In this document: positions 4,614 through 22,900 of the stretch, in pieces | How positions within the stretch are numbered: the first letter of the stretch is position 1 | Layout of the letters: each line of letters starts with the position of its first letter | Source: Microcystis aeruginosa NIES-2549 | Lineage (GTDB): Bacteria; Cyanobacteriota; Cyanobacteriia; Cyanobacteriales; Microcystaceae | Assembly: GCF_000981785.2 (NCBI RefSeq) | Contig: NZ_CP011304.1 | Coordinates: 3,330,001 to 3,362,000, forward strand | Direction: 5' to 3' | Length of the DNA stretch: 32,000 nt | Position numbers and translations under genes: made by a program | The notes under the pieces: generated by a model | Databases searched by the model: none | What the model saw: the letters and a program-made list of their open reading frames with translations, nothing else | Told to the model about the DNA's origin: nothing

Positions 4614-5144
4614 ATGCTTAACAACGCCGATTTTTTTGCTGGTGACGCTCAAAATATCACCCCCGACACTCAGGAATTACAAACTCCCGTCGGTGAACTG
4701 CACTTGCGATTTTATCTACCCTCTCAGGACGAGTTTGCCCTTAGTGCTGTGGGCATTTGCGAGGTAATACAGCAACCACTCGATCGCATTACCCCAATTC
4801 CCAATGCTTCACCCTTGCTCCTCGGTGCGATCAATCTCCGGGGTCAAGTGATCTGGGTGGCGGATCTCGGTCAATTTTTGGGGGATAAGAGCCGCTTAAA
4901 TACCGAACAAGCCGAAATTCCCGTAATTGTGATCGAAGAAGAGGAAACGATCCTCGGTTTAGGGGTGCAACGTTTGGGAGAGATGGAATGGCTCGACCTA
5001 GATCAACTAGGTAGTGCCGCCGGTATTCCCGATCAGATCGCCCCCTATGTGCAGGGAGAGTGGATTCTGGGCCAAGAATCAAAAAAAACCTTAAGACTAC
5101 TCGATCATCTGGCCATACTCCGTTCTGCCCGTTGGGCGGCTTAA
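4614..5144 (+). CDS. pilI: CheW-like coupling protein (PilI/HmpC type)
   Basis: 176-aa ORF. The stretch ..FALSAVGICEVIQQPLDRITPIPNASPLLLGAINLRGQVIWVADLGQFLG.. is a typical CheW domain core. It sits between pilH and an MCP gene. Confidence 0.85.
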   Translation: MLNNADFFAGDAQNITPDTQELQTPVGELHLRFYLPSQDEFALSAVGICEVIQQPLDRITPIPNASPLLLGAINLRGQVIWVADLGQFLGDKSRLNTEQAEIPVIVIEEEETILGLGVQRLGEMEWLDLDQLGSAAGIPDQIAPYVQGEWILGQESKKTLRLLDHLAILRSARWAA

Positions 5145-5237: not shown

Positions 5238-7901
5238 ATGCCGTCAGGGAAAGAATACGCGAAACTCTATGGAAAGGCTAACACTGCCTATTGCCAGGGC
5301 AACCTCTCAGATGCCGCCGTCATTGTCAAAGACATGATCAGCAAGTATCCCGATGATGCCAATGTCATCCTTTTACAGGGACACATTTATCTAGGACTAG
5401 AACAATACAGCTTGGCAGAGAAACATTACGAAAAAGTGCTGGAATTGGCTAAAAATTCTCCCAATCGCTTTGATCTGGTGGATTATGCTCGACGGGGTCT
5501 CGATCAGATTCGGCAATTGCGTTTTGAACCCGAGGATGGAGATTTTACGATCGCTGTTACAGAAAGCATTGCCTACAGTGAGGCAGCTTTCGATCCCAGT
5601 CAAGGTTTCAGCAATTCTTTGTCTGGGCGGTCGCAAGGGGCTGATCCTGATCGGCAAAATGAGTCAATAGATTGGAATAGTGGTCTTTTCAATGAGGAGT
5701 ATCTCGGGGAGCCTACGGTGGGTACAGTCGATTCCTATGGCGATGATTTTGGGGAATCGGAGGAAACCGCCTTTGGTTCCCTTCCCCTGGCCAGTTCAGA
5801 CTCTCACGGTTCCCAGTGGTCTGGCGATTCTCCAGATGGAGAACTCCCTTTCCCCTTTTTAGAAGCAGCGGAGATTGACTCGCTGCCGGAAGGGTGGGGT
5901 GGTGGGTTAGGGTCAAGGGGAGAAGCCACTTTTATGACTTCCTCTAACTGGCGGGAAAATCCCGTCACTGGGAGAGATCAGGAGTTATCCTATCCCGATA
6001 CCCTAGAAACAAGCACTTTTGCCATTGACCCGAACCCGACCTACCGACAAGCGGCGAAAACTGGCCTTAATGAGGGCATAGTCACTCAAAAAAGATACGA
6101 GGAGGACCAAACCGGAGATTTTAGAGAACTAAAACTCAATGATGAGGATTTAGACGGTTTTTCCCCACTGCATCTGACGGATATAGCCGAAGAACTGGGG
6201 GAATCGGAGCTATTTACCCGTTCGGGAGAGGAAGCTTTAACTGCTGGTTTTGTCCCCGAACCCAGTGCGCGCCTTCATGCCAGTTCTGCTGTGGGAGAGT
6301 CTAGTTTTAATCCTTCTCGTCTAGAAATCCCCGATGACAAAAGAGATAGTCATCTTGGCCCTGTTTCCGAGCGCCTGCTCAAGCCAGTGGTGGAAGTCAA
6401 TCCGGGCAAATTAGCCTTTTTTGTCAATGCTTCTTTGGGCAAAAAACAACTAATCCTAGCGGCTTTAGCGGGTATTACCCCTGTAGTCTTGATTTTTGCC
6501 GTTAGTACCACCTCTTGGCTATTTTCTCTATCGGCTGCCAAACCGGGCCCGAATAGCAAGGAAAAAACCGAAAAAGTTGCCCCGAAACCGGCCCCAGCCA
6601 GCCTTTCCCTTTTTAGTCAACCGGTACTAACCATGATGTTATTAACCGGACTGGGAACCCTTGGCCTGACTTGGCTAGGTTTACAGTTGCTAATTAGTCA
6701 AATTAAGCGCAGTCTCAACGATCTGCAAAGCCAATTCGATCATCTCTCGGAAGGCAATTTTAACGCTAAAGCGACGATCTACTCGGAAGATGAATTCGGT
6801 CAACTGGCTAATCGTTTCAATCAGATGTACCGGGTGGTGCTAACTACCACCACGGAAGCCCAACGCCGCGCCGCCGAAACGGAACAGGAACGGGAAGATC
6901 TACAAAGGCAAGTGATTCGACTTCTCGATGATGTGGAAGGAGCGGCTCGGGGGGATCTGACCGTGGAGGCGGAGGTAAGTGCCGATGTGTTGGGGGCGGT
7001 GGCCGATGCTTTTAATTTGACTATCCAAAACCTGCGCGAAATTGTCCGACAGGTGAAAAAAGCGGCAAAACAGGTGAATCAAGCCAGTACCAATAGTGAA
7101 TCTTTCGCCCGCAATCAGTCTAGCGATGCCCTGCGGATGGCGGAGGAATTAGCAGTCACCCTTAATTCGGTACAGATGATGACCGACTCAATTCAACGGG
7201 TGGCAGAAAACGCCAGAGAAGCCGAAGAAGTCGCCCGCACTTCCTCGATTACCGCCCTGAAGGGGGGCGATTCCGTGGAAAGAACCGTGGCGGGAATTCT
7301 GCAAATCCGCGACACTGTATCAGAAACGGCGCGAAAAGTGAAGCGTTTGGCGGAAGCTTCCCAGGAAATCTCGAAAATTGTCGCAGTAGTCTCTCAGATT
7401 GCCTCGCGGACCAATTTATTGGCTCTTAATGCCTCGATTCAAGCAGCGCGAGCAGGAGATGCGGGCCGCGGTTTTGCAGTGGTGGCCGATGAGGTGCGTC
7501 AGTTGGCCGATAGAGCCGCTAAATCTCTTAAGGAAATTGAACAGATCGTTTTACAGATTCAATCGGAAACGGGTTCGGTAATGACGGCAATGGAGGAAGG
7601 GATTCAACAGGTTATCGATGTCACCGAGCGCTCGGAACAGGCCAAGAAGTCCCTAGAAGATATTATCCAAGTGTCTAACCGCATCGATACGCTGGTGCGC
7701 TCGATTACCGCCGATACGGTCAAACAACGGGAGAATTCTCTCAATGTCGCCCAAGTTATGCAGTCGGTGGAGTTAACCGCTCAGGAAACTTCCCAAGAAT
7801 CCCAACGGGTGGCCGGTTCTCTGCAAAAATTGGTTAGTATCTCCCGGGAGCTGCTGTCTTCGGTAGAACGGTTTAAGGTAGACTCAGAGGATGATCGATA
7901 A
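5238..7901 (+). CDS. pilJ: Methyl-accepting chemotaxis-like protein with N-terminal TPR, acidic low-complexity region, TM segments, HAMP and MA domains (PilJ/HmpD type)
   Basis: 887-aa ORF with a GGGGAGGGG Shine-Dalgarno. It has a TPR-like N-terminus, two hydrophobic segments (..[17 protein letters not shown].., ..[22 protein letters not shown]..) and a HAMP segment ([14 protein letters not shown]). It also has the MCP signalling hairpin [48 protein letters not shown]. Confidence 0.88.
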
Positions 7902-7974
7902 TCGGTGAGCGGTAATCACTGGGTTATTGATTAGCCGCTATCCCTCAAGATTGACCGCTAGAGTGAGTAAAGTT

Positions 7975-9186
7975 ATGCCTAAACTTAGTCTCTGTATGAT
8001 TGTCAAAAATGAAGCCGAAAATCTCCGGCGCTGTTTGGATAGCGTTAAAGGGGTGGTGGATGAGATGATCGTTATGGATACGGGTTCGACCGATGATACG
8101 ATTGCTATTGCTAAAAGTTACGGTGCCATAGTTCCTAGCTACGATTGGCGGGGTAATTTTTCCGATGCCAGAAATGAGGCTTTAAAATATGTTACTGGTG
8201 ATTGGATTTTAGTTCTTGATGCCGATGAGGAATTAAATCCCGCTATCGTACCGAAAATGCGTCGGACAATGGAAAAAGAGGAAAATTTAGTTATTAATTT
8301 AATCCGCCATGAAATCGGAGCCGTACAATCACCCTATTCTCTAATTTCGCGGCTATTTCGCCGACATCCTCAAGTTACTTTTACCCGACCCTATCACTCA
8401 ATTATTGATGATAATGTGGCTATTTTATTAAAAAAAGAACCTGGCTGGAAAATAGTTGAACTGCCAGAAATTTCTATCTTTCACTACGGTTACACCGTCG
8501 ATAAAATAGCCAGCTTAGATAAGTTTGAACGGGCAAGAAAAGCGATGGAGGGCTTTTATCAGCAACATCCCCACGATCCCTATGTGTGCAGTAAATTGGG
8601 AGGGTTATATCTAAAGATTGGCAGGGATAAAGAGGGTTTTAAGCTGCTCAAACACGGTTTAAAATGCCATGGCTCTAATCCGCATATTTTATACGAGTTA
8701 TATTATCATCTCGCTAATTATTATTATTCGGTGGAGGAATTTAAGCAATCAGCAGATCATTTTATGAAAGCGATTAAGCAGCCAATTTTAGATAAATTAA
8801 AACTGGCTGCTTATAATAATTTCGGTGGGTTATTATACGAAGCAGAAAACTACGAAACTGCCTTATCTATCTTTGAGAAAACCGTAGAAATTGATCCTAG
8901 TTATGCCGATGGTTACTATAATTTAGGACTGGTTCTCAAACAACTGCACCGGCTACCAGAATCGATTAAAGCTTATAAAAAAGCTCTCAAGTTAAACCCC
9001 GATAATCCCGCTATTTACCAAAATCTAGGGGTGGCTTATATAGCTTTCGGTAGTTATAATGAGGCGATCGAGATTTGGCAAAAAGGCCTACAATTATTGA
9101 AAGATCAGGGTAATGTCTCTCGGGCTGAAATGCTGCAAGAAACCCTCAAAGCTCTGGGAGCAAGTCTATTGAGGGATGAACAATAA
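7975..9186 (+). CDS. Family 2 glycosyltransferase fused to C-terminal TPR repeats
   Basis: LSLCMIVKNEAENLRRCLDSV..MIVMDTGSTDDT..ILVLDADEEL is a GT2 (DxD) fold signature. The C-terminal half has TPR-like repeats (..AENYETALSIFEKTVEIDPSYADGYYNLGLV..AYKKALKLNPDNPAIYQNLGVAY..). The track ORF starts at a TTG at 7927, but the ATG at 7975 directly precedes the conserved N-terminus. Confidence 0.8.
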   Translation: MPKLSLCMIVKNEAENLRRCLDSVKGVVDEMIVMDTGSTDDTIAIAKSYGAIVPSYDWRGNFSDARNEALKYVTGDWILVLDADEELNPAIVPKMRRTMEKEENLVINLIRHEIGAVQSPYSLISRLFRRHPQVTFTRPYHSIIDDNVAILLKKEPGWKIVELPEISIFHYGYTVDKIASLDKFERARKAMEGFYQQHPHDPYVCSKLGGLYLKIGRDKEGFKLLKHGLKCHGSNPHILYELYYHLANYYYSVEEFKQSADHFMKAIKQPILDKLKLAAYNNFGGLLYEAENYETALSIFEKTVEIDPSYADGYYNLGLVLKQLHRLPESIKAYKKALKLNPDNPAIYQNLGVAYIAFGSYNEAIEIWQKGLQLLKDQGNVSRAEMLQETLKALGASLLRDEQ

Positions 9187-9615: not shown

Positions 9616-10953
9616 ATGAAATTCGAGGAAATCCAAGAGATTCTTAATGGGCAACTGCTCGAGCTTGAGAATCGCTCTCTCAATGACACAGAACAATTAT
9701 TATTGCGAGGACTTTGGCAGAAAAAGAGCTATCAAGAAATTGCCCAAGAAAATGGTTATAGTAGCAGCTATTTTGCCAATGTAGTTGCCCCAGGACTCTA
9801 TGATAGAGTCTCGCAACTGATCGGAGAACCGATCAATAAGAAAAATTTTTTATCTAGACTACAATCTCATTTTAGCAACTCCACGTCGTCTCAGTATCGC
9901 AGTCAGGAATATCTCCAAAATGAGCGTCCAGAATACCCCGATGCTCCTATTCCCTATAATTCTCCTTACTATCTGAAACAAAGAAACCTTGAAGCAAAAA
10001 TTATCGACGAAATCGGCCGAACTGGTTCGTTAGTCCGCATTAAAGCTCCCAAAAAATGGGGAAAAACGTCTTTATTATTAACAATTTTAGATGCTTGTCA
10101 ACAAAAATTCGGTTATCAAATTGTTAGTTTAGATTTACAAAAAGCAGACCAAAACATCATAGCCAATTTTAACAAGTTCTTACGCTGGATCTGCCGTAAT
10201 TGCGCTCGGCAGTTGAATTTAGAAGCCAAATTAGATGATTATTGGGATGAAGATATAGGAATTAAAATGAGTTGGACAATTTATTTTGAAGAGTATATTT
10301 TACGAGAAATAAAACAGCCACTGGTATTGGCTTTAGACGAAGTGCATCGAGTCTTTGAACATCCGAAAGTAGCGGAAGATTTTTTACCTTTAATCCGAGC
10401 TTGTTATGAAGAATCTAAGCGATCTTCTCTCTGGCAGAAATTACGTTTAATTATTGTTCAATCCACAGAATCTTATGTTTCTCTGCGATTAGAACAGTCT
10501 CCCTTTAATGTGGGATTACCCATAGAGTTACAGGGTTTTGATCAAGAACAAGTGGCAGAATTGGCAAAAAAATATCAATTAAATGAATTAGCAAACAACG
10601 AAATTCAACAGTTGATCGACTTAGTGGGGGGACATCCTGCCTTGATTCATTTAGCGATTTATCATCTTAGCCAAGAGCAAATCACGATGCCAGATTTAAT
10701 CAGATCAGCCATTACATCAACGGGAATTTATTCCTCTCATTTACAGCTGCACTGGGTCACTTTACAAAAACAACCTGAACTTGCCGGTATTTTTCAACAG
10801 ATTTGTCAAGGGAATCAACCAATGATAGTCGATCCAATTATTGCTTATAAACTTAATAGTATGGGTTTAATTAAACTCAGAGAAAATCAAGCAATTGTCA
10901 GCTGTCAGTTGTATCAAAAGTACTTTATAAGCCAATATACTGGTTCAGTATAA
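9616..10953 (+). CDS. HTH-like N-terminal domain fused to an AAA-like (AAA_35-type) P-loop NTPase
   Basis: 445-aa ORF. The N-terminus LNDTEQLLLRGLWQKKSYQEIAQENGYSSSYFANVV resembles a sigma-70 region 4/LuxR-like HTH common at the start of cyanobacterial STAND-like proteins. NTPase motifs are Walker A IKAPKKWGKTSLL, Walker B LVLALDEVH, then LRLIIVQSTE, SPFNVGLPIEL and VGGHPALIHLAIY, as in the AAA_35 family. Confidence 0.75.
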   Translation: MKFEEIQEILNGQLLELENRSLNDTEQLLLRGLWQKKSYQEIAQENGYSSSYFANVVAPGLYDRVSQLIGEPINKKNFLSRLQSHFSNSTSSQYRSQEYLQNERPEYPDAPIPYNSPYYLKQRNLEAKIIDEIGRTGSLVRIKAPKKWGKTSLLLTILDACQQKFGYQIVSLDLQKADQNIIANFNKFLRWICRNCARQLNLEAKLDDYWDEDIGIKMSWTIYFEEYILREIKQPLVLALDEVHRVFEHPKVAEDFLPLIRACYEESKRSSLWQKLRLIIVQSTESYVSLRLEQSPFNVGLPIELQGFDQEQVAELAKKYQLNELANNEIQQLIDLVGGHPALIHLAIYHLSQEQITMPDLIRSAITSTGIYSSHLQLHWVTLQKQPELAGIFQQICQGNQPMIVDPIIAYKLNSMGLIKLRENQAIVSCQLYQKYFISQYTGSV

Positions 10954-10974
10954 ATAAATTTTTGAACCATGGTG

Positions 10975-13900
10975 TTAAGACAGCGATCGCTCAAGCCAAT
11001 CAGTATTAAATATCGTCTGATAAATCCGATTATGAACGTCCATTTTCCCGTGACGCTTTACCACTAATCCAGATAAAAATAACTCAGGTAAATAGGGATT
11101 GTTATCAATCTGTATTGCTTTTTGATGGAGGATTTGTCGATACAAGGTTAATAATTGGGTTCGGTTTGGACTTTGAAGAAGGCGATCTTGAATAGTTTTT
11201 AAATGTTCGGGTTGATCCTGCATCTCCCAATCTTGAATAATTTTTTCTGCTACTAAGTTGGCCAACCATTGTTCTTCTTGATTAGAGGGTATTGGTTGCT
11301 CACTGTCCCGCATCAGTTGACAGAGTTTTTGAGTTAAGAAAGGTTGCCCTCCCGTCCAGCTTAAGACTTGTTTGAGCATGGTCTGAAGATTGCTGACTTT
11401 TTCTGTTAACCCATATAATAAAGGTTGGGCTTCGTGTTCCTTAAAACTTGCTAATTCAATAGCGTTACCAATATTAAAAGGTGTTTTCTGGGGGTCAGTA
11501 ATTAAAGCTGAAGGTGTGGTAGCACCAAAAAAGGCAAAAGTTAGCTCTTGAAATTGAGGTTGAATCGCTCTCTGGTTATAAAAAGAACGAATTAAAGCAA
11601 AAAAGTCAGAGACATCAAATTTTAACCCTAAAATGCTATCAATTTCATCAATAAATATAACAGTCGATTGTCTAGATTGCTGCTGATCAAAATCGTCATT
11701 AACTAGAAGAAACTCTTCCATAAATTCTCCTAATCGTTGTACAGGAGGCAGATCTAATTGTTCACTCCACCAAGCTTTAAAAGTTTTCAATTGTTTGATT
11801 AATCCAAAACTACGGAGCAGATCAACTGCTAATCCTTTATACCATTGTTCGGGGGTAATATTGTCTGTTCCTAGCCGAGTTAAGTCAATTACTGCACATC
11901 TAATTCCCTCCTTTTGTAATTGGCTCATCATCCGCACCATTAAGCTAGATTTTCCCATTTGACGTGCATTTAAAACATAGCAAAATAGACCTTGTTTGAG
12001 AGCTTTATAAAGATTGCGATCAGCTTGTCGAACCACATAATTTGGTGCATCCATCGGTAAACTTCCCCCCACTTGATAGACAAATTTGGGAGGTTGTTCA
12101 GAACTTTTAAGCAGGTCATTTTCAAAGATAAGTTCTGCTTGGGTTGCTTTCAGTACCTCTAAAGTATTTGTGAGTTCTTTTGTCCTTTCTTCTACTCTTT
12201 GTTCTAAGGTTTGATAGAGTCTTGAGTTATCAATAGAGATAGCAGCTTGAGCCACTAAAATATTTAACAGTTCAACTCTTTCTGAGGTAAATGCGCCTGT
12301 TGTTAAATTATTTTCTAAATAAACAATTCCTTTTAATTGACCTTGATTGAGTAAAGGAGTACAAAGAATAGATTTAGTTTTTTTAGCCACAATATAATAA
12401 TCGTTGGTAAATTGACCTTCAGATGTGGCATCATTTAAAACGATAGTTTCTTTTGTACGAGCGACATAATTAATAATGCTAGTGGGTAAAATGGGAATTG
12501 AGTTATTATGGTCGATAGATTCTATGGGAATTGATTGTAAGATATTCAGCGTTTCTTGATCAATTGTTCCTTGAGCTTCAATGACCAAATTTCCTTGCTG
12601 TTCTAAAATCAAATAACCTTTCTGCGCTCCTGCATTTTCAATAACAATTTTCATTAAGTTTGTTAGGAGATTTTCCAGTTTAATTTCTCCAGAAATCGCT
12701 TGCGAGGCTTTGAGAATAGTGTTTAAATCAAGAACTGCTCCGTCATTACCAGTGGTTGAAATAGTGGTACTCAGTCCTTTAGATTTGTTTTGATTGCTGA
12801 TACCTAATAAATATTGAGGGTATTCTTCTTCTAATTGTTTAACTTTGGCCTTTGCACCCCAACGAATGTAACAATGATAGGCATTTCTGAGGTATAATTT
12901 CCCGATTTCTTCTCTACCTAAAGTAAAATAAAATTCAGAGGCGCGTTCATAAGCTAAAGCCTCTTCATGGATAAATTCATACTTTTTTGCTCCTTGAATT
13001 GCTTTTTCATAAAATTCTTGAGCTTCCCAGTTTTGACCTAAGACTCTCGCTTTTTCTGCTTCGACTAAATAATATTTATGTTGAAAATTTGCTGGACAAT
13101 GACTTGCCCATTTTGCCATCTTCTGCTGGTTGTTATCTACTTGTTGTAGTAATTTTTCTTGCTGTTTTATATCACAATTATTGTGATGAGCTAAAAAAGA
13201 AAGAGAAGAATAAAAACTATGTTGAGGAGATGGTAAATACGAATCACTACTTTTTATGTATTGTTGTGTTTCCAGTCCATAATGACAAGCTTGATCATAA
13301 TCTTTTAAAAAATAACAAATCATTGTTTTGAGCAAATAAAAAATACACAATAACCATTCATTAGACTTGTCAAGCCAATTTTTAAGATGTTGATTTTCTT
13401 CTATCTGAGAACTACCAATAACTAATTTACTTGGGGCTTCATGAATCAGATTTAGAATAAAACTATAAGAAATTTCGAGATAAAAAATTGAATAGTCTTG
13501 TTGGGTTTTATAAATTAATTGTCTGTATTTTGTATAAGTTAGAGAAACCTCCTGCAAATTATATCCTCCAAAGCACTTGATAAAGCAATAAGTTATGGCT
13601 GCATAACTAGCAAATTCATTATCTCCGGTTTCTATTCCTTTCTGAATCCCTTGTAATAATTTTTCTTCTGTAACTATATTTCTAAGAGACTGTTTCCAGT
13701 GCCATATAAATCCATAGTACAGATGACTAACTTTGGCTTCTAATTTGGGAATATTCAATTGCTCTAGCAACTTTAAAGAAACTTTTCCAAATTCGTACCC
13801 CGAATCTATATCATTTAGAGTTCCACAGAGCATGATGCCATAAAATCCATAGATACCGGGAGATTGAGAAGGATTGCCATATTGAATGCAGAGATTGACT

Positions 13901-16752
13901 TGAATTAGAGTAATAAGAATACATAATAAAAAATTCGTTTGTATTGTTATACCAGAAATCTGTTGCAATATTAATATTACGGCTAATTTATAGGGATCAT
14001 TCATGGGAGAAAGATTAAGTAAACTTTCAATATTTTTTTCTTCTAGAAAAATTTGAATTTTTTCTTTTTCTTGCTTAATTTTTCTTTCGATCTCCTCTGT
14101 TTTTTGAGAAATATCTATTCCTAATTCAGCTAAAAAATTGAGACTAATATCGATTACTTTTTCTTGTTTAAATTTAGCAAAATATGATGAAATCATGTCT
14201 TGATATGCTGGCACTTTGTCAATGCTATTTTTAGCATTTTCAAGAACAATTTTATAAAAATATTCGACCTGCTCAAATTTGTTATTCAAATAGAGAGCTT
14301 CTATAAGTCCTAAATGAATTTCTAACGTTAACTTATAATGGGTTTTCCAACTATTAACGACTAGCAAATTTAAAGAAATTGTCATATATCTTAGATAGGC
14401 TTTATAAGCTGATGATGCTTTGGCTTTTTTCCCTGCTTGAAGATTTAATTTGGCTAACTTATCTTTTTCTAATTGTTCAGTAATTAATTCAGAACCTTCG
14501 TTCAGATGATTGACAATATCGAAAATATTTTTCTGCAACTCATCTTGTTTAATATTTTTCAGAAGTAGGCGACCAACTTGTAAATGAATCGGCTTCTTTT
14601 CTTCTTGTGGAATTAGAGAATAAGCTGCTTGTTGTACTCGGTCATGTAAAAATTTATAGGGAATATCTATGGAGGACTCAGGCTCGTTTTCTAAAAGTTT
14701 ACTCGATAATTCTTCGGAGTTCCATAAAAGAGGAACTTTATATTTATTATCTAAAGGAATTACCAGTCCTTCATCTAAAGCTGATTGTAGTTCTTGAGCA
14801 GTGATTTTTTGAGATTTATTATTTATAATTGCAATAATTTCTAAATTAAATTGGTTGCCAATACAAGCTGCTAGTTTAAGAATATTTTGAGTTTTATGAT
14901 TTAACTTTTTGATTTTATGAACCATCAAATCAACGACATTCTCAGTAATAGATACCCTTTCAACTTGTTCGATATCCCATTGCCAATAACCTCGTTCATT
15001 ATTTTCTGAATTAATCAAAGGAGATTGAGTAGGATTAAATATTAATAAATTATCTTGATACAAAGAATAGATAAGTTGAGTCAGAAAAAAAGGACTGCCA
15101 CCCGTTTTTTTAGCGATTAACTTAGCGAGCGGTTGAGAAATTTCTGTTGAACAATTAAGGGTATCAGCAATTAATTGATTAATGTGCTTAAGTTTTAAAG
15201 GGGAGAGGGTAATCTCCAAAATTGGGACTTGTGCTTGTTTAATATTCTCTAAAGTGTGTACTAGAGGATGGACAGGATTCACTTCATTATCTCGATAAGC
15301 TCCGAGCAGAAAAAAATATTTAATATCCGAATCTGATATTAATTGCTCAATTAAGTTCAGAGAAGGTAAATCAGCCCATTGCAAATCATCAATAAAGATC
15401 ACTAAAGGATATTCTTTTTGGCAAAAAACATTGAGAAATCGTTTAAAAAATAAATTAAAGCGATTTTGACTTTCTGTTCCCCCTAGTGATTCGGCTGGGG
15501 GCTGTTTGCTAATAATTTTCTCAAGTTCAGGAATAACATCGATAATAATTTGACCATTACTACCTAAGACTTCTAATATCTTCTTTTTCCAAGTTTGTAG
15601 AATTATTTCTGGTTCACTTAGCAGTTGACGAATTAAGTCTTGAAATGCTTGAGAAATAGCAGAATAGGGAATATTTCGCTGTAATTGATCGAATTTTCCC
15701 TTAATAAACCGTCCTCGGTGGCGTGTAATAGGTTTATGAATTTCATTAACTAATGCAGATTTGCCAATCCCTGAATAGCCGGAAATTAGAACGATTTCTG
15801 TTGTTCCTTGACTGACTCTCTCAAAAGCGGTGAGAAGTTGATTAATGTTCTGTTCTCGACCATAAAGTTTTTGCGGAATCTGAAATCTTTCCGCTATATC
15901 CTGACTTGCTAAAGGAAATTGTAAAATTTGTCTTTTCATCTTTAATTGATTCAGACAGTTTTCTAAGTCTGCTTTAATTCCCCACGCACTTTGATATCTT
16001 TCCTCTGGCGTTTTCGCTAATAATTTGCTAATGATATTAGAAACAGTTAAGGGAACATCTCGACTGAGTTCATGAACAGGTAAAGCTTGTTGGGCAATAT
16101 GACAATGAACCAACTCCATTGGGTCTGTAGTTTCAAAAGGAAGTCTGTGGGTTAACAGTTCATAAAAAGTTACACCAAGGGAATAAAAGTCACTACGATA
16201 ATCAAGTCCACGATTCATTCTCCCTGTTTGTTCTGGGGCAATATAAGCTAATGTTCCTTCTAATTGATGAGGGGGAACAAGCGTAATTAATTCTTGGGAT
16301 AAACGAGTAGAAATGCCAAAATCAATGATTTGAAGTTGTCCCGTTTTTGGGTTATAGACAATATTAGAAGGGTTAATATCTTTATGGATAATGTTAGCTT
16401 TATGGATGGCCGCTAATCCCTCAGTTATCTTAATGGCAATCATTAGAAATTCTTCTAAGCTTAATTTACTTTGGGAGAGTAATAATTTTAAAGATTGACC
16501 ACCACAATCTTCAAAAAGTATTACTAAGCTATTTTCATATCGCTGTAAGTCATAAGCTTTAACAATATTGTCTACCTTAAGAGAACGGGTAATTTCATAT
16601 TCTTGTTTATAACGAGTTAGCTCTGAGGGCGTAGGATAGTTTTCTTTGAGAATTTTGATAACAATCGGCTGATTATTTTGATTTAAAGTAGCACGGTAAA
16701 CCAATGAATTGGGACTTTCGTAAATTTTTTCGACGATTTGGTAGTCTTTCAT
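10975..16752 (-). CDS. Giant multidomain protein: Ser/Thr protein kinase - AAA_16/STAND-type ATPase - long helical (TPR-like) region - GAF - coiled coil - C-terminal AAA-like (AAA_35-type) NTPase
   Basis: 1925-aa ORF.
- Kinase core: [25 protein letters not shown] (aa ~1-270).
- First NTPase: Walker [15 protein letters not shown] (aa ~322-334) and Walker [12 protein letters not shown].
- GAF-like block: ..[18 protein letters not shown]...[38 protein letters not shown].. followed by a signalling-helix-like coiled coil.
- Last ~372 aa (nt 10978-12093): [63 protein letters not shown], an AAA_35-type module.
No H-box or HATPase motifs are seen. Confidence 0.85.
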
Positions 16753-16839: not shown

Positions 16840-17154
16840 TTAGCTACAAGTTGTTGGAAGATAAGGAACCGGTGGAAAGGGATCGCTAACTATTTCGTTT
16901 GGGTTGTTCACATCTACCTTGCTTGTTAACCATGCACGCGGGACATCATCTAAATTAACATTCTCGTCACTGGGTTTGGGAGGATAGGGCAATGTCATAA
17001 TAAAGAAAGGCCCTTTTTGTTCTAGAGAAGGTTGAGGAATTTCTTGGAGACTTCCTTCAAAGGTATCCCATTTGACTTGGAGGAGAAAATAGTCGATTTC
17101 TTCCTGATCAAAAATTGCTCCAAAACTATTATCGGGAAACCAAGGTTCTAACAA
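16840..17154 (-). CDS. Downstream half of a split gene (hypothetical; possible nitrile-hydratase-alpha/NHLP-like C-terminal part)
   Basis: 104-aa ORF with only a TTG start. Its frame stays open upstream to 17217 and overlaps the previous ORF by 7 nt. It contains FFIMTLPYPPKPSDENVNLDD, reminiscent of the ..YLVLP.RP.. strand of NHase-alpha/NHLP domains, and ends in Pro-rich ..SDPFPPVPYLPTTCS. Confidence 0.5.
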   Translation of the reverse strand: MLEPWFPDNSFGAIFDQEEIDYFLLQVKWDTFEGSLQEIPQPSLEQKGPFFIMTLPYPPKPSDENVNLDDVPRAWLTSKVDVNNPNEIVSDPFPPVPYLPTTCS

Positions 17155-17444
17155 ATCTCCTTTTTTCCTGTTAGTAAATCTACCATATCTATATATGTCG
17201 GACTTTGGCGTTGAAAATCATTGTTCTTAAAGTCGAGAAATATCCGCCGTATTTGTTCGGCCTTTTCATGTTTTATCCAAGAAATAGCTACGAGTTGAGC
17301 CAATTTTTTGCACTGTTTTACAATTCGATTATAATAGTTATGTGTAGTCTTTAGACCATCTGAATCTGACGCACGGGAAGCTTTATTGGTATCGGTACTA
17401 ACAACAAAGCTGTGTAATTGCTTGAGACTTTGAGATGTAATCAT
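17148..17444 (-). CDS. Upstream half of the split gene (hypothetical; possible NHase-alpha/NHLP-like N-terminal part)
   Basis: The ATG at 17444 lies 9 nt after an AAGGAG Shine-Dalgarno, whereas the track start at 17483 is a TTG. The product MITSQSLKQLH...KKLAQLVAISWIKHEKAEQIRRIF... loosely resembles the A.VVAKAW.D..FK..L helix of NHase-alpha/NHLP. The ORF ends 4 codons after an A_AAA_AAG heptamer. Confidence 0.5.
   Translation of the reverse strand: MITSQSLKQLHSFVVSTDTNKASRASDSDGLKTTHNYYNRIVKQCKKLAQLVAISWIKHEKAEQIRRIFLDFKNNDFQRQSPTYIDMVDLLTGKKEIC
17160..17166 (-). promoter_or_regulatory. A_AAA_AAG slippery heptamer at the junction of the two half-ORFs (candidate -1 frameshift site, or the site of a 1-nt indel)
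   Basis: The minus strand reads ACA GGA AAA AAG GAG ATT TGT TAG in the upstream frame. A -1 slip on A_AAA_AAG continues as GGA GAT TTG TTA GAA CCT.. (GDLLEPWFPDNSF..), which is exactly the downstream ORF's frame. Confidence 0.45.
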
Positions 17445-17525
17445 GAGCAGAAACTCCTTTGATTTGAAGATTTGTTGAAACAATAGAGACGCTAAATGAT
17501 GGCTAAACTCCGTAAAAAAATTTCT

Positions 17526-18614
17526 TTAAGATGCTAAACCATAAAATCGTTGAGGATTTTCCCAAACGATTTTTTTAACTATCTCCTGAGATAAGTTGTC
17601 TTCAAGTCCTATAACTTTTTTTACCCCATCAGCCTGATGATCCATGTGAGGATAATCAGACCCGAAGATTAAGTTATCAGAACCGATAAAATCAATGACC
17701 TGAGCCAAACAGGGTTCCGAGGGTTCCACTGCAATGTAACACTGACGGCGAAAATACTCCGATGGTAGTAATTTTACCCGACCTTGGACTTCCCAATGTA
17801 AATTTTTATACTCTTCGTCAAGCTTCCATAACCAATAGGGAAGCCAACCACACCCTGATTCTAGAAACGCCACTCTCAGCCTCCGATGACGTTCTAAAAC
17901 CCCCCCTTCAATTAAGGCTAACAGTGCCATCATTTGTTCCATCGGGTGAGAACAAGCATGAAGCGCAAACCGACTATTAAATCGCTCTGCACCAGTGGTG
18001 GGTAAGCGGCTATGAGTGCCTTCATGAATTCCTACAGCCATGTCCAAATCCTCGCAGGCCGTCCAAAAGGGTTCATAGGCTGGATCGCTCAAAATTCTGC
18101 CTTTAACGGGGTTAGGGCGCAAAAAAACCGCCTTCCAGCCCAACTTTGCCATGCGGTGTAGCTCTTTGACCATATCTTCGGGATCGTGTTGATTGACTGC
18201 AGCGACTCCTTTCAGTCTAGCGGGGTCATAGCTACAAAATTCTTCCGATAACCATCTATTATAGGCACGGACAAAAGCCCCCATCACTTCGGCGGGTAGG
18301 CTATCAATGGCAAATAACCACAGTCCATAAGTAGGATAAATAAAAGCCACATCGACCCCCATTTGTACCATTGCTTGAACATGGGACTCTGGGTTATAGC
18401 GATTGAGATAAGCGTGGGGATGAGCTTGCATCATCTGCTTATTCCCTTCTGCTTGGACTTGTGGGGAGATTTTTTGACTAATCGGTTCTCCTTTGATTTT
18501 CATGTCAGCAGAAGGAGCAAATTCCCTAAATTTAGGTTCTAGGTATTGTCCCCACATTGCGGGGGGTTCAATGACGTGGGAATCAGCATCAATAATTTTG
18601 TACCCGTTGAGCAT
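17526..18614 (-). CDS. Metal-dependent TIM-barrel hydrolase/decarboxylase of the Amidohydro_2 (ACMSD-like) family
   Basis: 362-aa ORF. IIDADSHVIEP near the N-terminus is the HxH-type metal site. It also has ..GIHEGTH.., ..AFLESGCGWLPYWL.. and ..LIFGSDYPHMD.., the conserved His/Asp ligands of this family. Confidence 0.8.
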   Translation of the reverse strand: MLNGYKIIDADSHVIEPPAMWGQYLEPKFREFAPSADMKIKGEPISQKISPQVQAEGNKQMMQAHPHAYLNRYNPESHVQAMVQMGVDVAFIYPTYGLWLFAIDSLPAEVMGAFVRAYNRWLSEEFCSYDPARLKGVAAVNQHDPEDMVKELHRMAKLGWKAVFLRPNPVKGRILSDPAYEPFWTACEDLDMAVGIHEGTHSRLPTTGAERFNSRFALHACSHPMEQMMALLALIEGGVLERHRRLRVAFLESGCGWLPYWLWKLDEEYKNLHWEVQGRVKLLPSEYFRRQCYIAVEPSEPCLAQVIDFIGSDNLIFGSDYPHMDHQADGVKKVIGLEDNLSQEIVKKIVWENPQRFYGLAS

Positions 18615-19077
18615 AGCGATTTTTCGGCAATTTTCTACCTAAATTATATTTGATTGGGAAAAAGCGGTCCCTTTTTTTAGGCTTTTTTTTAATCCCCTGA
18701 AACCGCTACAAGTCAGAGGGTAAAAGGGTTTTGATGATTTTAGTCGCCCGATTAATTCATTAGTTCTACTTTCAGTGATGAGGTAGTCATACCATAAAGT
18801 GACCCTTTAAATCTAATACAAATCTAATATAAATCTCATATAAAAGTTAATATTCTGCTCAAAAAAACCTATTAGAAAAGTATTAACTTTAGAGATTGCC
18901 ATTACTCAAAATAAAACTTATTCTGGTATCAAAGGTCATTGAACAAATCACTTTTAACCCAAAAGACAAGGCATTTTGCTTAAGGCATTATGGCTAATCT
19001 AAAAAATTCAGAAATGGATTTTTTTGAGTGTCTTAAGATTTTTAGCCACTCACCTTATTATTTCAGGATAGATAATC

Positions 19078-19656
19078 ATGCAATTACTGTCTTCTTTTGA
19101 ATTACTGGTACAGCCGATCATTCCTAGCAATTTAGCTAAGATGCTTCAATTAGAATCTGTCGATCCTTTAGTGCTACAATCTTACTTTCTAATTCTTTCA
19201 AATGTTAGTTCCGAATCAGTTACAGCAATTCTAGAATTTACAGCAGACACTGGTGGGAATTCTACCTTCAAGGGTAGTCAGGACGGCAACTTTAAACCTG
19301 TCTCTGCTTTTCTGGATCTGACTGCCGCCATGCCATTGAGTGAACCTAACTTTGAAATTACTACCCCTTCTACAGCTAAAGCTATTCTGGCACTCGGTGC
19401 TAAATCTACTGCTACTTTTCTCCTTCAGCCCGATGTCATCCCTGTAGCTAAAGCTATTAAAGACCCTCAATCTCGTGATTTGAGCTTTGAACTACGAGGA
19501 GCAGTTGAAATTTCGGTATCAAGACCTCAATCACTTCTTGTTTCTCCTCAAACGCGGGGAACATTCTTTAAAACGGCTTCAGATACTAATATGCCTCTAG
19601 AAGTTTTTGCCGAACAAGCTTACGGTTTACCGACGGCTAATAGTAATTTCATCTAG
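19078..19656 (+). CDS. Hypothetical protein, no recognisable family
   Basis: 192-aa ORF with an ATG start and non-repetitive, plausible composition. It is preceded by a ~460-nt AT-rich intergenic region. No motif I recognise, and no signal peptide or TM segment. Confidence 0.5.
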   Translation: MQLLSSFELLVQPIIPSNLAKMLQLESVDPLVLQSYFLILSNVSSESVTAILEFTADTGGNSTFKGSQDGNFKPVSAFLDLTAAMPLSEPNFEITTPSTAKAILALGAKSTATFLLQPDVIPVAKAIKDPQSRDLSFELRGAVEISVSRPQSLLVSPQTRGTFFKTASDTNMPLEVFAEQAYGLPTANSNFI

Positions 19657-19793
19657 TATCACTGCTTGAGTTAGGGCAGACTTCTATTCTTTAGTCTTTG
19701 TTATTATTAAGCATTAATTCCTGCTTATCTAAAGATCAGATTGTTCTGTCCTAACCAATTAAATACTAAAAAACAACCAGAGGTCTTACAAGT

Positions 19794-20696
19794 ATGAATA
19801 CTAAGTTTAAATTTATCCCCTTAAGTTTCCATTGGTGCGCTATTCACCCTCAACCAATCGGCGTTGTTTATTTTATTGGTGGTGCATTTTTTGGAACTTT
19901 TCCTAATTTTTTCTATCGTTACCTTCTTCAAGAAGTGTTTGAACAAGGCTATACGATTGTCGCTATTCCCTATCGTTTCACTTTTGATCATTGGTCTGTA
20001 GCGATCAATATTTTTAAAGACTTAGAGGAAGTTAGGAAAAGTCTTTATCAAGAGGCTCTTTCTTTAAACTATACCACTAACATTGGAATCTACTTGGAAT
20101 CACCAATTGCTCAAAACTCTTATTATGTATGGATAGGACATAGCTTAGGTTGTAAATATATCCAACTTTTGGAAATCTTAACTGAGCTAGATTCTCCCGA
20201 TTTAGAGGATTTAAAGAAAAGTCCAATTTTAAGGCAATGTGGCATCCAAGAACAAGCAAAAAATATTAGAAAATCCCTGGATGGTATCACTCTAGCAGAT
20301 GTTTCACTCAAAAACCAGCCATCTATCTTTTTAGCTCCTGTGATTGCAGGAATTCAGAATGCTATCCCCATTCCTTTTTTAGCTAAATTGTTGCAGTATT
20401 TCGGTTTAGATGTACGACCTAGTGTAAAAGAGACGAAGTGCTTAATTAGTCAAAGTAGCTATTTTCAAATACTAGATATAATTGCTTTTAGCAAGGATAA
20501 ACAAGCCAGTAAAACAGTAGAATGGTTCGATCATATATTCGAGGCAAAAAAGCGGTTGAAGGCTTTAATTGTCTTACCTGATCGTATACATCTTGCTCCT
20601 CTTGGCTATCAAGACGGTGATCGAGAAGTTGCCAAAACAGTAATTTACGCTCTTGAAAAATTAAGAACGAAACTATCAATGGTTTTGTTTCAATAG
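19794..20696 (+). CDS. DUF1350-family (alpha/beta-hydrolase-like) protein
   Basis: 300-aa ORF. PIGVVYFIGGAFFGTFPNFFYRYLLQEVFEQGYTIVAIPYRFTFDHW matches the conserved N-terminal block of cyanobacterial/plant DUF1350 as I recall it. A GHSLG nucleophile-elbow-like motif is present. Confidence 0.65.
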   Translation: MNTKFKFIPLSFHWCAIHPQPIGVVYFIGGAFFGTFPNFFYRYLLQEVFEQGYTIVAIPYRFTFDHWSVAINIFKDLEEVRKSLYQEALSLNYTTNIGIYLESPIAQNSYYVWIGHSLGCKYIQLLEILTELDSPDLEDLKKSPILRQCGIQEQAKNIRKSLDGITLADVSLKNQPSIFLAPVIAGIQNAIPIPFLAKLLQYFGLDVRPSVKETKCLISQSSYFQILDIIAFSKDKQASKTVEWFDHIFEAKKRLKALIVLPDRIHLAPLGYQDGDREVAKTVIYALEKLRTKLSMVLFQ

Positions 20697-20771
20697 AAGT
20701 GCGCTCCTGAAAGCAATGCGTAGCAGTAAACTTATCTTGTGGCTTGGTTGACGAATGTAATGTTTTATCAC

Positions 20772-20880
20772 TGCGATCGCTCCTTCTTCTCGATTGGATT
20801 GAAATAACGAAACCCAACACTAATTAAGGTGTGTTACTGCGGTGACATACCTTTTACCTATCAGTTATAATGGAAAGGTT
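20772..20880 (+). repeat. ~105-nt dispersed element, copy A (HIP1 - CTTCTCGATTGG - TTGAAAYAACGAAACCCAAC - hairpin - ATCAGT)
   Basis: It aligns base-for-base with 22603-22626 plus 22869-22950: GCGATCGC..CTTCTCGATTGG / TTGAAA(T/C)AACGAAACCCAACA..TTAAGGTGTGTTACTGCGGTGACA(T/C)ACCTTTTAC..ATCAGT. Confidence 0.8.
20826..20855 (+). terminator. Terminator-like hairpin inside repeat copy A
   Basis: AAGGTGTGT-tactgcggtg-ACATACCTT followed by TTT. This is a 9-bp stem with one G-U pair, about 130 nt downstream of the DUF1350 stop. Confidence 0.4.
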
Positions 20881-21009
20881 TGAAGCCTAGACTTTCATCA
20901 AATGATGCTCATCTCTCTGAAAAATCCTGGTATCGTATCGTACATAGTGTAATGTCGTTGTCACTACATTATGTTAAAATAATTAAGTTTGGAATTACAC
21001 ACCCATCTT

Positions 21010-21300
21010 ATGAGTAGTAAAACAAAAAGTAAGACTCCGCGTAATACCCTAAATTTGCGAATTAAGCCAGAAGAACGCAATTTGATCGATATGGCAGCCA
21101 AAGTGCAAGGTAAGAATAGAACTGATTTTATTTTGGAAGCCGCGCGGAATGCTGCGGAGGAAACTTTGCTCGAACGTACTATTTTTTTGGCTAGTCCAGA
21201 GGCTTATGCAGAATTTATCGCACTTCTAGATGCACCACCTCAACCTAATGAACGTTTACGCAAAACCATGCAGACGCTCGCACCTTGGGAGAAGGAATGA
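21010..21300 (+). CDS. DUF1778 (TacA-like, RHH) antitoxin
   Basis: LNLRIKPEERNLIDMAAKVQGKNRTDFILEAARNAAEETLLE is the typical DUF1778 core. The ATG at 21010 is preferred over the track's TTG at 20989. Its stop overlaps the next gene's start (ATGA). Confidence 0.8.
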   Translation: MSSKTKSKTPRNTLNLRIKPEERNLIDMAAKVQGKNRTDFILEAARNAAEETLLERTIFLASPEAYAEFIALLDAPPQPNERLRKTMQTLAPWEKE

Positions 21301-21791
21301 ATTTGACACCACCTGAACCTCTGGCTAGTTATCACTCAATCACTGATTTTTCCTGCGGAATTACTTCTCTTGATGATTGGTTGAAGCGTCGAGCTTATGC
21401 TAATCAAGCCAGTGGTGCAACTAGAACTTTTGTTACCTGCGTTGACAATAGGGTAGTTGGGTATTACGCCTTTGCTTCCGGGGCGATTAGTATACAATCA
21501 GCTAATGGTAAATTTCGGCGGAATATGCCTAACCCAATTCCAGTGGTAATTTTGGCACGATTGGCAGTAGATACTTCTTACCAAGGTCAAGGTTTAGGAT
21601 GCGGTTTATTTCGTGATGGTGCGCTACGGGTTGTTAAAGCGGCTGATACCATTGGTAGTCGGGGAATTATTGTTCATGCTATTTCAGAAGAAGCTAAGAA
21701 TTTTTATTTGGCTTTAGGTTTTGATGTGTCTCCTCTTGAACCGATGACGTTGATGATTACTCTTAATGATTTACGCGCTTGTATTGCTTAG
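21297..21791 (+). CDS. GNAT-family acetyltransferase toxin (TacT-like)
   Basis: ~164 aa. RLAVDTSYQGQGLGCGLFRDGALRV is the GNAT acetyl-CoA motif (Q/RxxGxG). It is paired by a 4-nt overlap with the DUF1778 gene, which is the canonical arrangement. Confidence 0.8.
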   Translation: MNLTPPEPLASYHSITDFSCGITSLDDWLKRRAYANQASGATRTFVTCVDNRVVGYYAFASGAISIQSANGKFRRNMPNPIPVVILARLAVDTSYQGQGLGCGLFRDGALRVVKAADTIGSRGIIVHAISEEAKNFYLALGFDVSPLEPMTLMITLNDLRACIA

Positions 21792-21942
21792 TGCGCTACA
21801 GGGGCAACACGGGGTCAACCACAGGGGGTTTGCCCCTACAGGTACGTTTAAGTCCAGAATAACTTTGCTTATGGCCTCATGAACAAGATGTTTGCCCTGA
21901 TACACTTTACTTAGATTCAGTGCGATCACCAGTTATCTTTAA

Positions 21943-22173
21943 TTAAGTTTCTCCCTTACTTAAATTATTACAAAACAATTGAATTTCATTGATTATGGTT
22001 TGATAAGAATTAACAATTTGATGGGCGATGATTAAAACCTTTTCCTCTGCGTTTCGATACATGACATCCGATTGATTAGATAATTCTCTTAAAAATATCT
22101 CTAACTGTTGTAGGGCTTGGAGAATTTTATTGAGTTCTTGATTAATTCTATCTTGAATTGATAAATTAGTCAT
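21943..22173 (-). CDS. Small all-helical partner of the nucleotidyltransferase (toxin position, but not a canonical HEPN)
   Basis: 76-aa ORF whose ATG overlaps the MNT stop (ATGA at 22170-22173), indicating translational coupling. No Rx4-6H HEPN motif is visible. Confidence 0.5.
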   Translation of the reverse strand: MTNLSIQDRINQELNKILQALQQLEIFLRELSNQSDVMYRNAEEKVLIIAHQIVNSYQTIINEIQLFCNNLSKGET

Positions 22174-22544: not shown

Positions 22545-22626
22545 TATGATTACCCCTAAATCATTGAATATCAATAGTTTCTATGATAGCAATGGTTGTG
22601 ATAAGCGATCGCCGATCTTCTCGATT

Positions 22627-22868
22627 GGGCTTCGGCCGTGAGCTCAGGCTTCGACGGTGAGACTTCGGACGTTCGGTGAGACTTCGGACGTTCGGCGAGA
22701 CTTCGGACGTTCGGCGAGACTTCGGCGTGAGACTTCGGCGTGAGCTTTTGTCGAACGCTCAGTCGAACGCTCAGTCGAGCCGCGTGAGCTTTTGTCGAAC
22801 GCTCAGCCGAACCGCCTGTCGAACCGCCGCGTGAGCTTTTGTCGAACGCTCAGCCGAACCGCCGAACG
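22627..22868 (+). repeat. GC-rich compound tandem repeat
   Basis: Three 19-mers ACTTCGGACGTTCGG(T/C)GAG lie at 22661-22717. Two 13-mers ACTTCGGCGTGAG lie at 22718-22743. Three 34-47-nt units begin CTTTTGTCGAACGCTCAG(T/C)CGA.. at 22744, 22788 and 22835. Confidence 0.85.
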
Positions 22869-22900
22869 GTTGAAACAACGAAACCCAACAATATTTTATT

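Follow-up and report, generated by a model that had tools for sequence, protein, structure and literature searches.

A B-type AAA_35 NTPase at the C-terminus of an HstK-like giant protein, and its HTH-bearing AAA_35 neighbour, as candidate halves of a signalling switch in Microcystis aeruginosa

Results

A giant sensor protein and its neighbour both carry an AAA_35 module

In a 32,000-nucleotide stretch of the Microcystis aeruginosa NIES-2549 genome (contig NZ_CP011304.1, positions 3,330,001 to 3,362,000; hereafter the window), a gene for a giant sensor protein of 1925 amino acids (aa) lies tail to tail with a gene for a 445-aa partner, and both proteins carry an NTPase module of the Pfam family AAA_35 (PF14516). 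A preliminary description of this DNA had proposed that the giant protein follows the domain order of the cyanobacterial HstK kinases, that their histidine kinase output has been replaced by an AAA_35-type P-loop module, and that the neighbour is a helix-turn-helix (HTH)-AAA_35 protein. Pfam searches reproduced this layout (Table 1), and the sequence motifs that had been quoted were all found in place. AAA_35 matched aa 1563-1916 of the giant protein (E 2e-31; 109.5 bits against a gathering cut-off of 27 bits) and aa 107-437 of the partner (E 7.7e-134; 446.1 bits against a cut-off of 27). HisKA and HATPase_c were absent from the 1925-aa protein at E<0.01, while the same search detected both in HstK proteins from Nostoc (locus L038) and Scytonema (locus L021). 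Pkinase, AAA_16 and GAF each scored above their family cut-offs, and weak nSTAND matches accompanied the AAA_16 module.

The HTH assignment of the partner comes from its orthologues, which carry the precomputed Pfam annotations PF26355 ('HTH_VMAP-M9') and PF14516. In a structure model the partner's N-terminal domain has five predicted helices, including residues 24-34, 39-46 and 50-69, and a LuxR-like pattern can be made out by eye in its sequence.

The kinase domain had been described as a complete Hanks core, which overstates the case. Aligned to StkP, it retains K33, D125, the DFG motif (D144) and APE, but its G-loop is the glycine-free YxSxxS where the canonical form is GxGxxG, and its catalytic loop reads HKDINPSN in place of HRDLKPxN, a change of Lys to Asn. 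Both deviations are kept across orthologues.

Far from being rare, the architecture is common across cyanobacterial orders: the nearest match is a Microcystis aeruginosa protein with 97% identity, and at least 120 clusters (90% identity) match over the full length at 60-75% identity with the same set of Pfam domains, in genera including Microcystis, Crocosphaera, Gloeothece, Aphanothece, Trichodesmium, Moorena, Okeania, Nostoc, Anabaena, Scytonema and Leptolyngbya. These orthologues are annotated merely as 'AAA family ATPase' or 'serine/threonine protein kinase', and the architecture is uncharacterised in all sources searched, in agreement with the earlier statement that no characterised example was known.

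The two stop codons are separated by 21 nt, as first noted, and a terminator and promoter scan around this gap found no terminator-like site within it, with counts at chance level. In other Microcystis genomes the two open reading frames (ORFs) overlap by 4 nt. This spacing had been thought to force an overlap of the 3' ends of the transcripts. Outside Microcystis, however, the kinase and partner genes converge at one further locus only (L076) and are otherwise co-directional or divergent, so we rejected such an overlap as a general regulatory feature.

Predicted folds of the two modules

We refer to the AAA_35 subtype of the partner as A and to that of the kinase C-terminus as B; the A and B modules of this locus are only 22% identical. 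In AlphaFold models, the partner (predicted local distance difference test, pLDDT, 85.5) and the B module (pLDDT 78) each combine a P-loop domain with a helical lid and a winged helix. In Foldseek searches of the PDB (E 1e-9 to 1e-5), both modules matched the archaeal AAA+ proteins SSO1545 (2fna) and PABY2304 (2qen) first and, in a second tier, Orc1/Cdc6, including the 2qby heterodimer on DNA. RuvB was also among the top matches, and further matches were the plant resistosomes NRC3, NRC4, Sr35 and Roq1, then CED-4, Apaf-1 and Dark, and the bacterial Avs3 and Avs4. Taken separately, the A module matched 2qen, 2fna, NRC3/NRC4, CED-4, Orc/Cdc6 and Avs4, and the best matches of the B module were 2fna, Orc/Cdc6 and Avs3/4. 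The archaeal AAA+ and Orc1/Cdc6 structures thus fit equally well as or better than NLR, Apaf-1, CED-4 and Avs, and no Pfam STAND family scored above its cut-off in the AAA_35 parts of either protein. A sequence search of the PDB returned no match for A, and the B profile matched only RecA, over short P-loop stretches. A GxP-like motif is recognisable by eye in both (VGGHPAL in A, TGGQPFL in B). Because the Walker A Lys and the Walker B Asp-Glu are kept in both subtypes, the A and B chains both look nucleotide-competent.

A and B recur as adjacent, fused and co-diverging chains

A profile of the C-terminal module was run against one genome per species, and 79 loci were drawn from more than 595 matches; one hidden Markov model (HMM) was built per subtype and used to classify every ORF. 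The C-terminus of the giant protein scores 668 bits with the type-B HMM. In most loci with sufficient flank, A adjoins B. Their start and stop codons overlap in L055, L059, L064 and L072, and in L060, L062, L067 and L068 two to four tandem B genes lie behind a single A gene. The HMMs identified B followed by A in a single chain in L016 (11219-13405) and L033 (17020-19290); L084 (24436-25790) and L086 (21794-24079), each with two AAA_35 stretches in one chain by Pfam, are probable B-A fusions. The tandem proteins of these four loci have 730-790 aa and lie within about 10 kb of the kinase cluster. When the B module was compared with the full library by phmmer, at least 4,200 clusters (50% identity) matched at E<=1e-30, and many of the matched proteins contain two to six AAA_35 stretches.

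The distance matrices of A modules and their adjacent B modules are correlated (Mantel r 0.68, reached by 0 of 2000 permutations). Flanks of 10 kb centred on B under-count partners, and this was corrected by gene-centred look-ups in nine genera: an A gene lies within 10 kb of the orthologous kinase gene in eight of them. The functional link that the preliminary description had proposed between the two genes is thus upheld by proximity, fusion and correlated divergence, which, as far as gene comparisons go, is the classical signature of proteins that work together.

The two subtypes carry different accessory domains. The N-termini of 45 A proteins include 17 of the HTH_VMAP-M9 type, detected with an HMM that we built from the partner's own N-terminal domain (the model is not in the local Pfam), and, by Pfam, TIR (8), CHAT (4), trypsin (2), guanylate cyclase (2), HTH_26 (2), GGDEF (1) and Pkinase (1). 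WD40 repeats occur in 27 of 50 non-kinase B proteins, as C-terminal propellers; other C-terminal extensions of B are HisKA-HATPase, a Peripla_BP_6 periplasmic-binding domain and trypsin, and the inputs found N-terminal to B elsewhere are REC-PAS, PAS-GAF, dCache-HAMP, histidine kinase (HK)-REC-PAS and HstK-type kinases. Because A N-termini carry effectors and B carries WD40 or sensory inputs, A appears to be the chain that bears the effector and B the one that bears the input or sensor. The tripartite logic of STAND and NLR proteins would then be spread, in A/B pairs, across two paralogous NTPases.

The kinase-B fusion as a probable bypass of a phosphorelay

At the same locus in Nostoc (L038) the corresponding functions are found unfused. 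The gene order there is YcaO, a small ORF, Amidohydro_2, HstK, a single-domain REC protein and a REC-PAS-B protein of 726 aa, and the HstK protein (1817 aa) has the architecture Pkinase-AAA_16-GAF-HisKA-HATPase. The kinase part of this protein resembles the window protein to the same degree as do those of the fused Nostoc orthologues, and the kinase parts of true HstK proteins at this locus are 49-67% identical to that of the window protein. A second HstK lineage, linked to an RPE65-type gene (Scytonema L021), has the same order of HstK, REC and REC-PAS-B. In both L038 and L021, HisKA comes after GAF, at the position corresponding to that of the linker helix in the window protein. HK-REC(-PAS)-B occurs in one chain in L046 and L047, and Pkinase...GAF-PAS-B is present in other genomes.

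Since the unfused HstK, REC and REC-PAS-B sit at the same locus in Nostoc, the window protein is best read as an HstK sensor fused straight onto the downstream NTPase module, with the His-Asp relay deleted. The proposal that the HstK output has been replaced is borne out by this comparison, and the fusion and relay data suggest that B-type AAA_35 NTPases are the signalling target of HstK kinases.

The dual Ser/Thr-His kinases of filamentous cyanobacteria have been named 'cbSTKIII' (PMC2176072), and the same 2007 survey placed Tery_3863 of Trichodesmium within the HstK clade as a 'GAF' kinase without HisKA (PMC2176072); this protein is possibly an orthologue of the window protein. Two such genes were termed 'HstK-like' in the Microcystis PCC 7806 genome paper. 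No downstream partner of HstK kinases turned up in the literature searched.

A conserved YcaO, amidohydrolase and protein X cluster

The gene-centred look-ups placed three further genes near the kinase gene: Amidohydro_2 in eight of the nine genera, an unannotated protein of 185-400 aa that we call X in eight, and a fused TOMM-type cyclodehydratase in seven. The A gene lies on either side of this cluster or is divergent from the kinase gene. The cyclodehydratase of the window scores above the curated cut-offs of TIGR03604 (SagD-type YcaO; 260.4 bits against 219.25) and TIGR03882 (leader-binding/E1-like; 188 bits against 36.9). In Trichodesmium IMS101 the kinase and A genes are kept while YcaO, amidohydrolase and X are not nearby; therefore the kinase/A pair can stand alone.

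Protein X was found only in cyanobacteria. It has no Pfam match, and an NCBIfam search gave none for an X orthologue and a single chance-level match for the X fragments of the window. Its C-terminus is almost invariably Y-F-x-P-P-Y-P-Y-[IL]-P-L-[ST]-[CTS]-[STC], and the last three residues are of types that would suit a YcaO heterocyclase or a Ser/Thr kinase. In the window, the gene is split into two overlapping ORFs on the minus strand, 17148-17483 (111 aa) and 16840-17154 (104 aa), by a 1-nt deletion in an A-run, which is A6 here and A7 in M. novacekii L002, where the gene is intact. The split may mark a pseudogene or a phase-variable tract, or stem from a sequencing error in the homopolymer. 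A likeness of X to nitrile-hydratase-like leaders was seen by eye only, had no NCBIfam match and is not claimed here.

A radical SAM/SPASM gene stands between X and the kinase in two genera, Trichormus (L083, 8551-9957) and Leptolyngbya (L088, 3012-4346). In both, X is short (185-191 aa), and that of Trichormus ends in NPYIPTTCT. The combination of this gene with a short X is consistent with a peptide-modification pathway. An extracytoplasmic function (ECF) sigma factor (Sigma70_r2 + r4_2) is encoded beside the cluster in three genera: Gloeothece (L084, 23232-24098), Moorena (L085, 264-1520) and Anabaena cylindrica (L086, 17803-18399). It is a possible extra regulatory component and is absent from the flanks in the window.

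Between the amidohydrolase and cyclodehydratase genes of the window lie about 5.5 kb of small ORFs (18615-24181), which look like an insertion into an otherwise tight cluster. This stretch includes a DUF1350 gene (19794-20696), and DUF1350 is also found near the cluster in Anabaena cylindrica (L086). It further includes a two-gene unit (21943-22574, minus strand) in which a 134-aa ORF overlaps a 76-aa ORF; the former matches MntA-type nucleotidyltransferase antitoxins below cut-off (E 1.4e-9), and the unit is probably a type VII toxin-antitoxin pair or its remnant. Upstream of the YcaO gene, an ORF of 124 aa (27013-27387, plus strand) has a rubredoxin-type match below the curated cut-off (E 6.6e-19).

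Mosaic variation within Microcystis

A location in a variable island had been envisaged for the pair. The chromosomal position of the locus is syntenic within Microcystis, and the genes belong to a cluster conserved across genera. Variation is concentrated inside the locus: the flanks and the last ~700 kinase codons have 92-93% DNA identity between Microcystis strains, while the segment 13089-17799, comprising X and the first ~1200 kinase codons, has ~64-78% or is unalignable. GC content falls to 29-31% at 13001-15000, and aa 801-1200 (nt 13153-14352) are hypervariable, with 21-64% identity in all comparisons, those within Microcystis included. X and the N-terminal region of the kinase vary jointly as one cassette.

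In Microcystis aeruginosa S464 (L001, 2463-5459) the amidohydrolase is shortened to 272 aa, and a 700-aa RPE65-type oxygenase gene takes the place of X. The kinase there combines the conserved Microcystis C-terminus with an N-terminal region of the RPE65-linked HstK lineage, to which Scytonema L021 also belongs. L001 looks like a recombinant allele, and recombination among paralogues explains at least part of the mosaicism. We also considered the variable cassette as a ligand-receptor 'pherotype', an idea weakened by L001, which carries a paralogous HstK N-terminal region with RPE65 and no X.

Other genes in the window

Immediately upstream of the partner gene, on the plus strand, are genes for CheW (4614-5144), a TPR-HAMP-MCP chemoreceptor of 887 aa (5238-7901) and a GT2-TPR glycosyltransferase (7927-9186); the order of these genes is syntenic in Microcystis L001. 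The CheW and chemoreceptor genes are in turn preceded by a TnpB-like gene (3345-4568, plus strand), which encodes OrfB_IS605 and a Cas12f1-like TNB domain and apparently belongs to an IS605-family element.

Table 1. Coordinates, in the window, of the paired genes, their domains and the genes of the conserved cluster
Feature	Position	Strand	Basis
Partner gene, 445 aa: HTH_VMAP-M9 and A-type AAA_35	9616-10953	+	ORF, Pfam, orthologue annotation
Partner N-terminal helical domain, aa 1-92, HTH_VMAP-M9 type	9616-9891	+	Precomputed PF26355 on orthologues
A-type AAA_35 NTPase module of the partner (aa 107-437) with K150 in Walker A, D241 in Walker B, the motifs SPFNVG and VGGHPAL, and a winged helix at the C-terminus	9934-10926	+	Pfam, Foldseek
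Inter-stop gap, 21 nt, between the convergent giant and partner genes	10954-10974		ORF coordinates
Giant sensor gene, 1925 aa: Pkinase, AAA_16, helical repeats, GAF, B-type AAA_35	10975-16752	-	ORF, translation, Pfam
B-type AAA_35 NTPase module (aa 1541-1925) with K1601 in Walker A, D1702 in Walker B, and the motifs TPFNIG and TGGQPFL	10978-12132	-	Pfam, HMM, model
Linker helix from GAF to AAA_35, aa 1508-1540	12133-12231	-	Read from sequence; helix predicted with low confidence
GAF domain, aa 1359-1507	12232-12678	-	GAF E 2e-14; GAF_2 E 7e-10
Helical-repeat region, aa 480-1340	12733-15315	-	Weak TPR_CHK1 match, aa 1109-1267
AAA_16 P-loop module (aa 295-479) with K331 in Walker A and D455 in Walker B	15316-15870	-	AAA_16 E 1.4e-45
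Hanks-type kinase domain, aa 8-254, atypical	15991-16731	-	Pkinase E 8e-43; alignment to StkP
Protein X gene, C-terminus PFPPVPYLPTTCS, split into two ORFs	16840-17444	-	Homology to X of other genera
Amidohydro_2 gene, upstream neighbour of the kinase gene	17526-18614	-	Pfam E 2.7e-34
Fused TOMM-type cyclodehydratase: leader-binding/E1-like domain and YcaO	24182-26479	-	YcaO E 2.8e-102

Discussion

We propose that the giant protein forms one half, and its neighbour the other, of a split, NLR-like, ATP-dependent AAA_35 switch with an Orc1/Cdc6-STAND-type fold and a transcriptional output, a conclusion towards which the evidence tips, if not by much. The comparisons above show which domains the proteins contain, the class of their fold, how the subtypes are paired and fused, the synteny and the unfused relay; physical contact between A and B, the direction of signalling, DNA binding and the target genes are inferred. 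A signal sensed by the N-terminal 1500 aa would alter the nucleotide or oligomeric state of B, and B in this altered state would assemble with A. The HTH domains of the A subunits would be brought together, and once juxtaposed they could bind DNA and change transcription, with the adjacent YcaO, amidohydrolase and X genes as plausible targets.

Several observations weigh against this proposal. The evidence for contact between A and B, adjacency and fusion, is indirect. In Leptolyngbya L088, whose contig stops 1 kb upstream of the cluster, no A gene is seen up to 10 kb from the kinase gene, and about 11 of 29 B-centred loci are without A, the kinase gene filling most of the upstream flank there. 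B is not always a terminal output, being N-terminal to HisKA-HATPase in L055 and L059. The kinase domain lacks the G-loop glycines and the Lys of the catalytic loop. As for DNA binding, no HTH family was detected in the N-terminus of the partner even at E<=10 with the local Pfam, which is without the PF26355 model. Moreover, HTH_VMAP-M9 was first described as a variable, all-helical 'middle' module of VMAPs with a proposed role as a sensing surface (PMC7159879); because of that description, the N-terminal domain of the partner may bind protein rather than DNA.

A broader version of the same idea can be put forward only tentatively, and we think it probably claims too much. A/B pairs would form an undescribed, mainly cyanobacterial 'split NLR' class, in which effector-bearing A and sensor- or input-bearing B are separate paralogues that come together once activated and one A serves up to four B; the module would also be the missing HstK output. 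At this locus the giant sensor would have as its ligand or substrate either the YcaO-modified C-terminal tail of X or a peptide that the amidohydrolase frees from it, and the HTH-bearing A would regulate the cluster, closing the circuit.

Alternatively, the locus could be a YcaO (TOMM-like) maturation pathway with X as its substrate, the giant protein either phosphorylating the C-terminal Ser/Thr/Cys tail of X, in the manner of LanL/LanKC kinases, or binding the modified tail as a ligand, and the AAA_35 modules acting as scaffold, chaperone or feedback regulator. We consider this unlikely. In its favour, YcaO, Amidohydro_2, X and the kinase, with or without radical SAM/SPASM, are kept in seven to eight of nine genera; YcaO passes the TIGR03604 and TIGR03882 cut-offs; X is restricted to cyanobacteria, where its contigs have the same lengths as those of the kinase orthologues, ends in PYPY[IL]PL-[ST][CTS][STC] and co-varies with the N-terminal region of the kinase as a cassette in Microcystis. 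TIGR03903, to which the kinase domain has a weak match, is a precedent for a large kinase fusion in TOMM clusters. Against this reading, Trichodesmium IMS101 has the kinase and A genes and none of the other three (YcaO, amidohydrolase, X) nearby, Microcystis L001 has an intact kinase-B and A with no detectable X and a truncated amidohydrolase, and X is frameshifted in the window, where the kinase and A are intact. The kinase domain is also catalytically atypical, and NCBIfam does not recognise X as a leader or precursor family. Maturation and a transcriptional switch are partly compatible, provided that the signal, or the target under regulation, is X or a product of X.

That the pair serves as an NLR-like system of anti-phage defence or abortive infection, with the variable repeats of the giant protein detecting an invader and A/B assembly triggering a protective or suicidal response, is doubtful, more so than a maturation pathway. 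The conflict flavour seen in the preliminary description stands for paralogous A/B pairs, which combine TIR, CHAT or trypsin effectors with WD40 sensors and may have several sensor paralogues per effector chain. The fold resembles the nucleotide-binding domains of Avs and NLR proteins, aa 801-1200 are hypervariable, strains of Microcystis differ in mosaic fashion over the N-terminal 1200 aa, HTH_VMAP-M9 is common to VMAP conflict systems, and the hosts are mainly colonial or filamentous cyanobacteria. At this locus, however, the effector slot holds an HTH domain and no toxic enzyme. Orthologues at least 60% identical over 1925 aa span cyanobacterial orders in a conserved YcaO/amidohydrolase/X cluster, the chromosomal position is syntenic within Microcystis, and the mosaicism arises at least partly by recombination with the paralogous RPE65-linked HstK lineage. 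Against PADLOC-DB v2, the giant protein gave generic kinase matches (PD-T4-6, mad6 and MkoA, over aa 2-350) and no signature match, the partner gave a Csn2 fragment only (E 2.6e-4), and neither AAA_35 module was matched. We think that this locus is not a defence island.

It is highly improbable that the genes are chance neighbours working independently, or that the AAA_35 proteins are Orc1/Cdc6-like ATPases of DNA replication or transposition: Orc1/Cdc6 and RuvB are among the top Foldseek matches, a TnpB gene lies in the window and the convergent orientation rules out a single operon, but A and B recur together in dozens of loci, in several layouts and in fused chains, their divergence is correlated, the domains fused to them are those of signalling and effector proteins and not of proteins of replication or transposition, and the TnpB gene is 5 kb away and non-syntenic with the pair in most other genera. 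An exception to this non-synteny is Anabaena cylindrica (L086), where an IS605 pair lies ~7-9 kb from A.

These observations matter in three respects. B-type AAA_35 NTPases are a concrete candidate for the output of HstK kinases, whether through a phosphorelay or by direct fusion. AAA_35 is a large unstudied family whose NLR-like modularity is distributed over two paired chains, in parallel with plant sensor/helper NLRs. Finally, the tie of the switch to an apparently unannotated cyanobacterial YcaO/amidohydrolase/X cluster offers an entry to the biology of peptide or protein modification in bloom-forming Microcystis.

Comparison with known systems

The component parts (Hanks kinase, GAF, AAA+/STAND-like NTPases) are of already known kinds; the paired, split arrangement and the link to HstK look new. 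A literature search that included papers on conflict systems and a survey of STAND proteins found no description of AAA_35/PF14516, of A/B pairing, of the HstK link or of the YcaO/amidohydrolase/X cluster.

Among known proteins, the HstK family (Anabaena Alr2258 HstK, Pkn40/Pkn41) shares Pkinase, AAA_16, helical repeats, GAF and the linker helix with the window protein over the N-terminal 1500 aa, and differs in ending with HisKA/HATPase_c where the window protein has B-type AAA_35.

TIGR03903, the TOMM kinase/cyclase fusion, a large protein with an N-terminal Ser/Thr kinase beside a TIGR03882-type fused cyclodehydratase, matches the giant protein over the kinase domain only, at 135 bits against a cut-off of 705.75; it has a cyclase output instead of AAA_35 and occurs in other host phyla.

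With VMAP proteins and the MoxR-vWA ternary conflict systems (Kaur et al. 2020, PMC7159879), the partner has HTH_VMAP-M9 in common, and both systems are enriched in colonial or filamentous bacteria. MoxR, vWA and VMAP-C are absent here, and HTH_VMAP-M9 is N-terminal to AAA_35, not in the middle of a VMAP.

SSO1545 (2fna), PABY2304 (2qen) and Orc1/Cdc6 are the top Foldseek matches of both modules (E 7e-10 to 1e-7, TM 0.4-0.6), and a weak ATPase_2 match in Pfam points the same way; sequence identity is 13-16%, and the domain fusions and gene contexts are different.

STAND NTPases have been defined by a P-loop, a helical domain with GxP, a winged helix, and fused effector and repeat-sensor domains (Leipe et al. 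2004). As in Apaf-1, CED-4, plant NLRs and Avs, a nucleotide-binding domain, helical lid and winged helix are predicted in the AAA_35 proteins, and across the family effectors are N-terminal and repeat sensors C-terminal. They differ in that effector and sensor are on two paralogous chains rather than one, and structurally they come closest to archaeal AAA+ (Arch_ATPase) and Orc1/Cdc6 rather than to NACHT/NB-ARC.

In plant sensor/helper NLR pairs, such as those of the NRC network, both partners are full NLRs. The AAA_35 pairs resemble this network in that one effector chain serves one to four adjacent sensor paralogues, and NRC3 and NRC4 are among the Foldseek matches. The parallel is one of analogy only, with no sign of a shared ancestry of the pairing, and each AAA_35 chain is without one of the accessory parts that a full NLR has.

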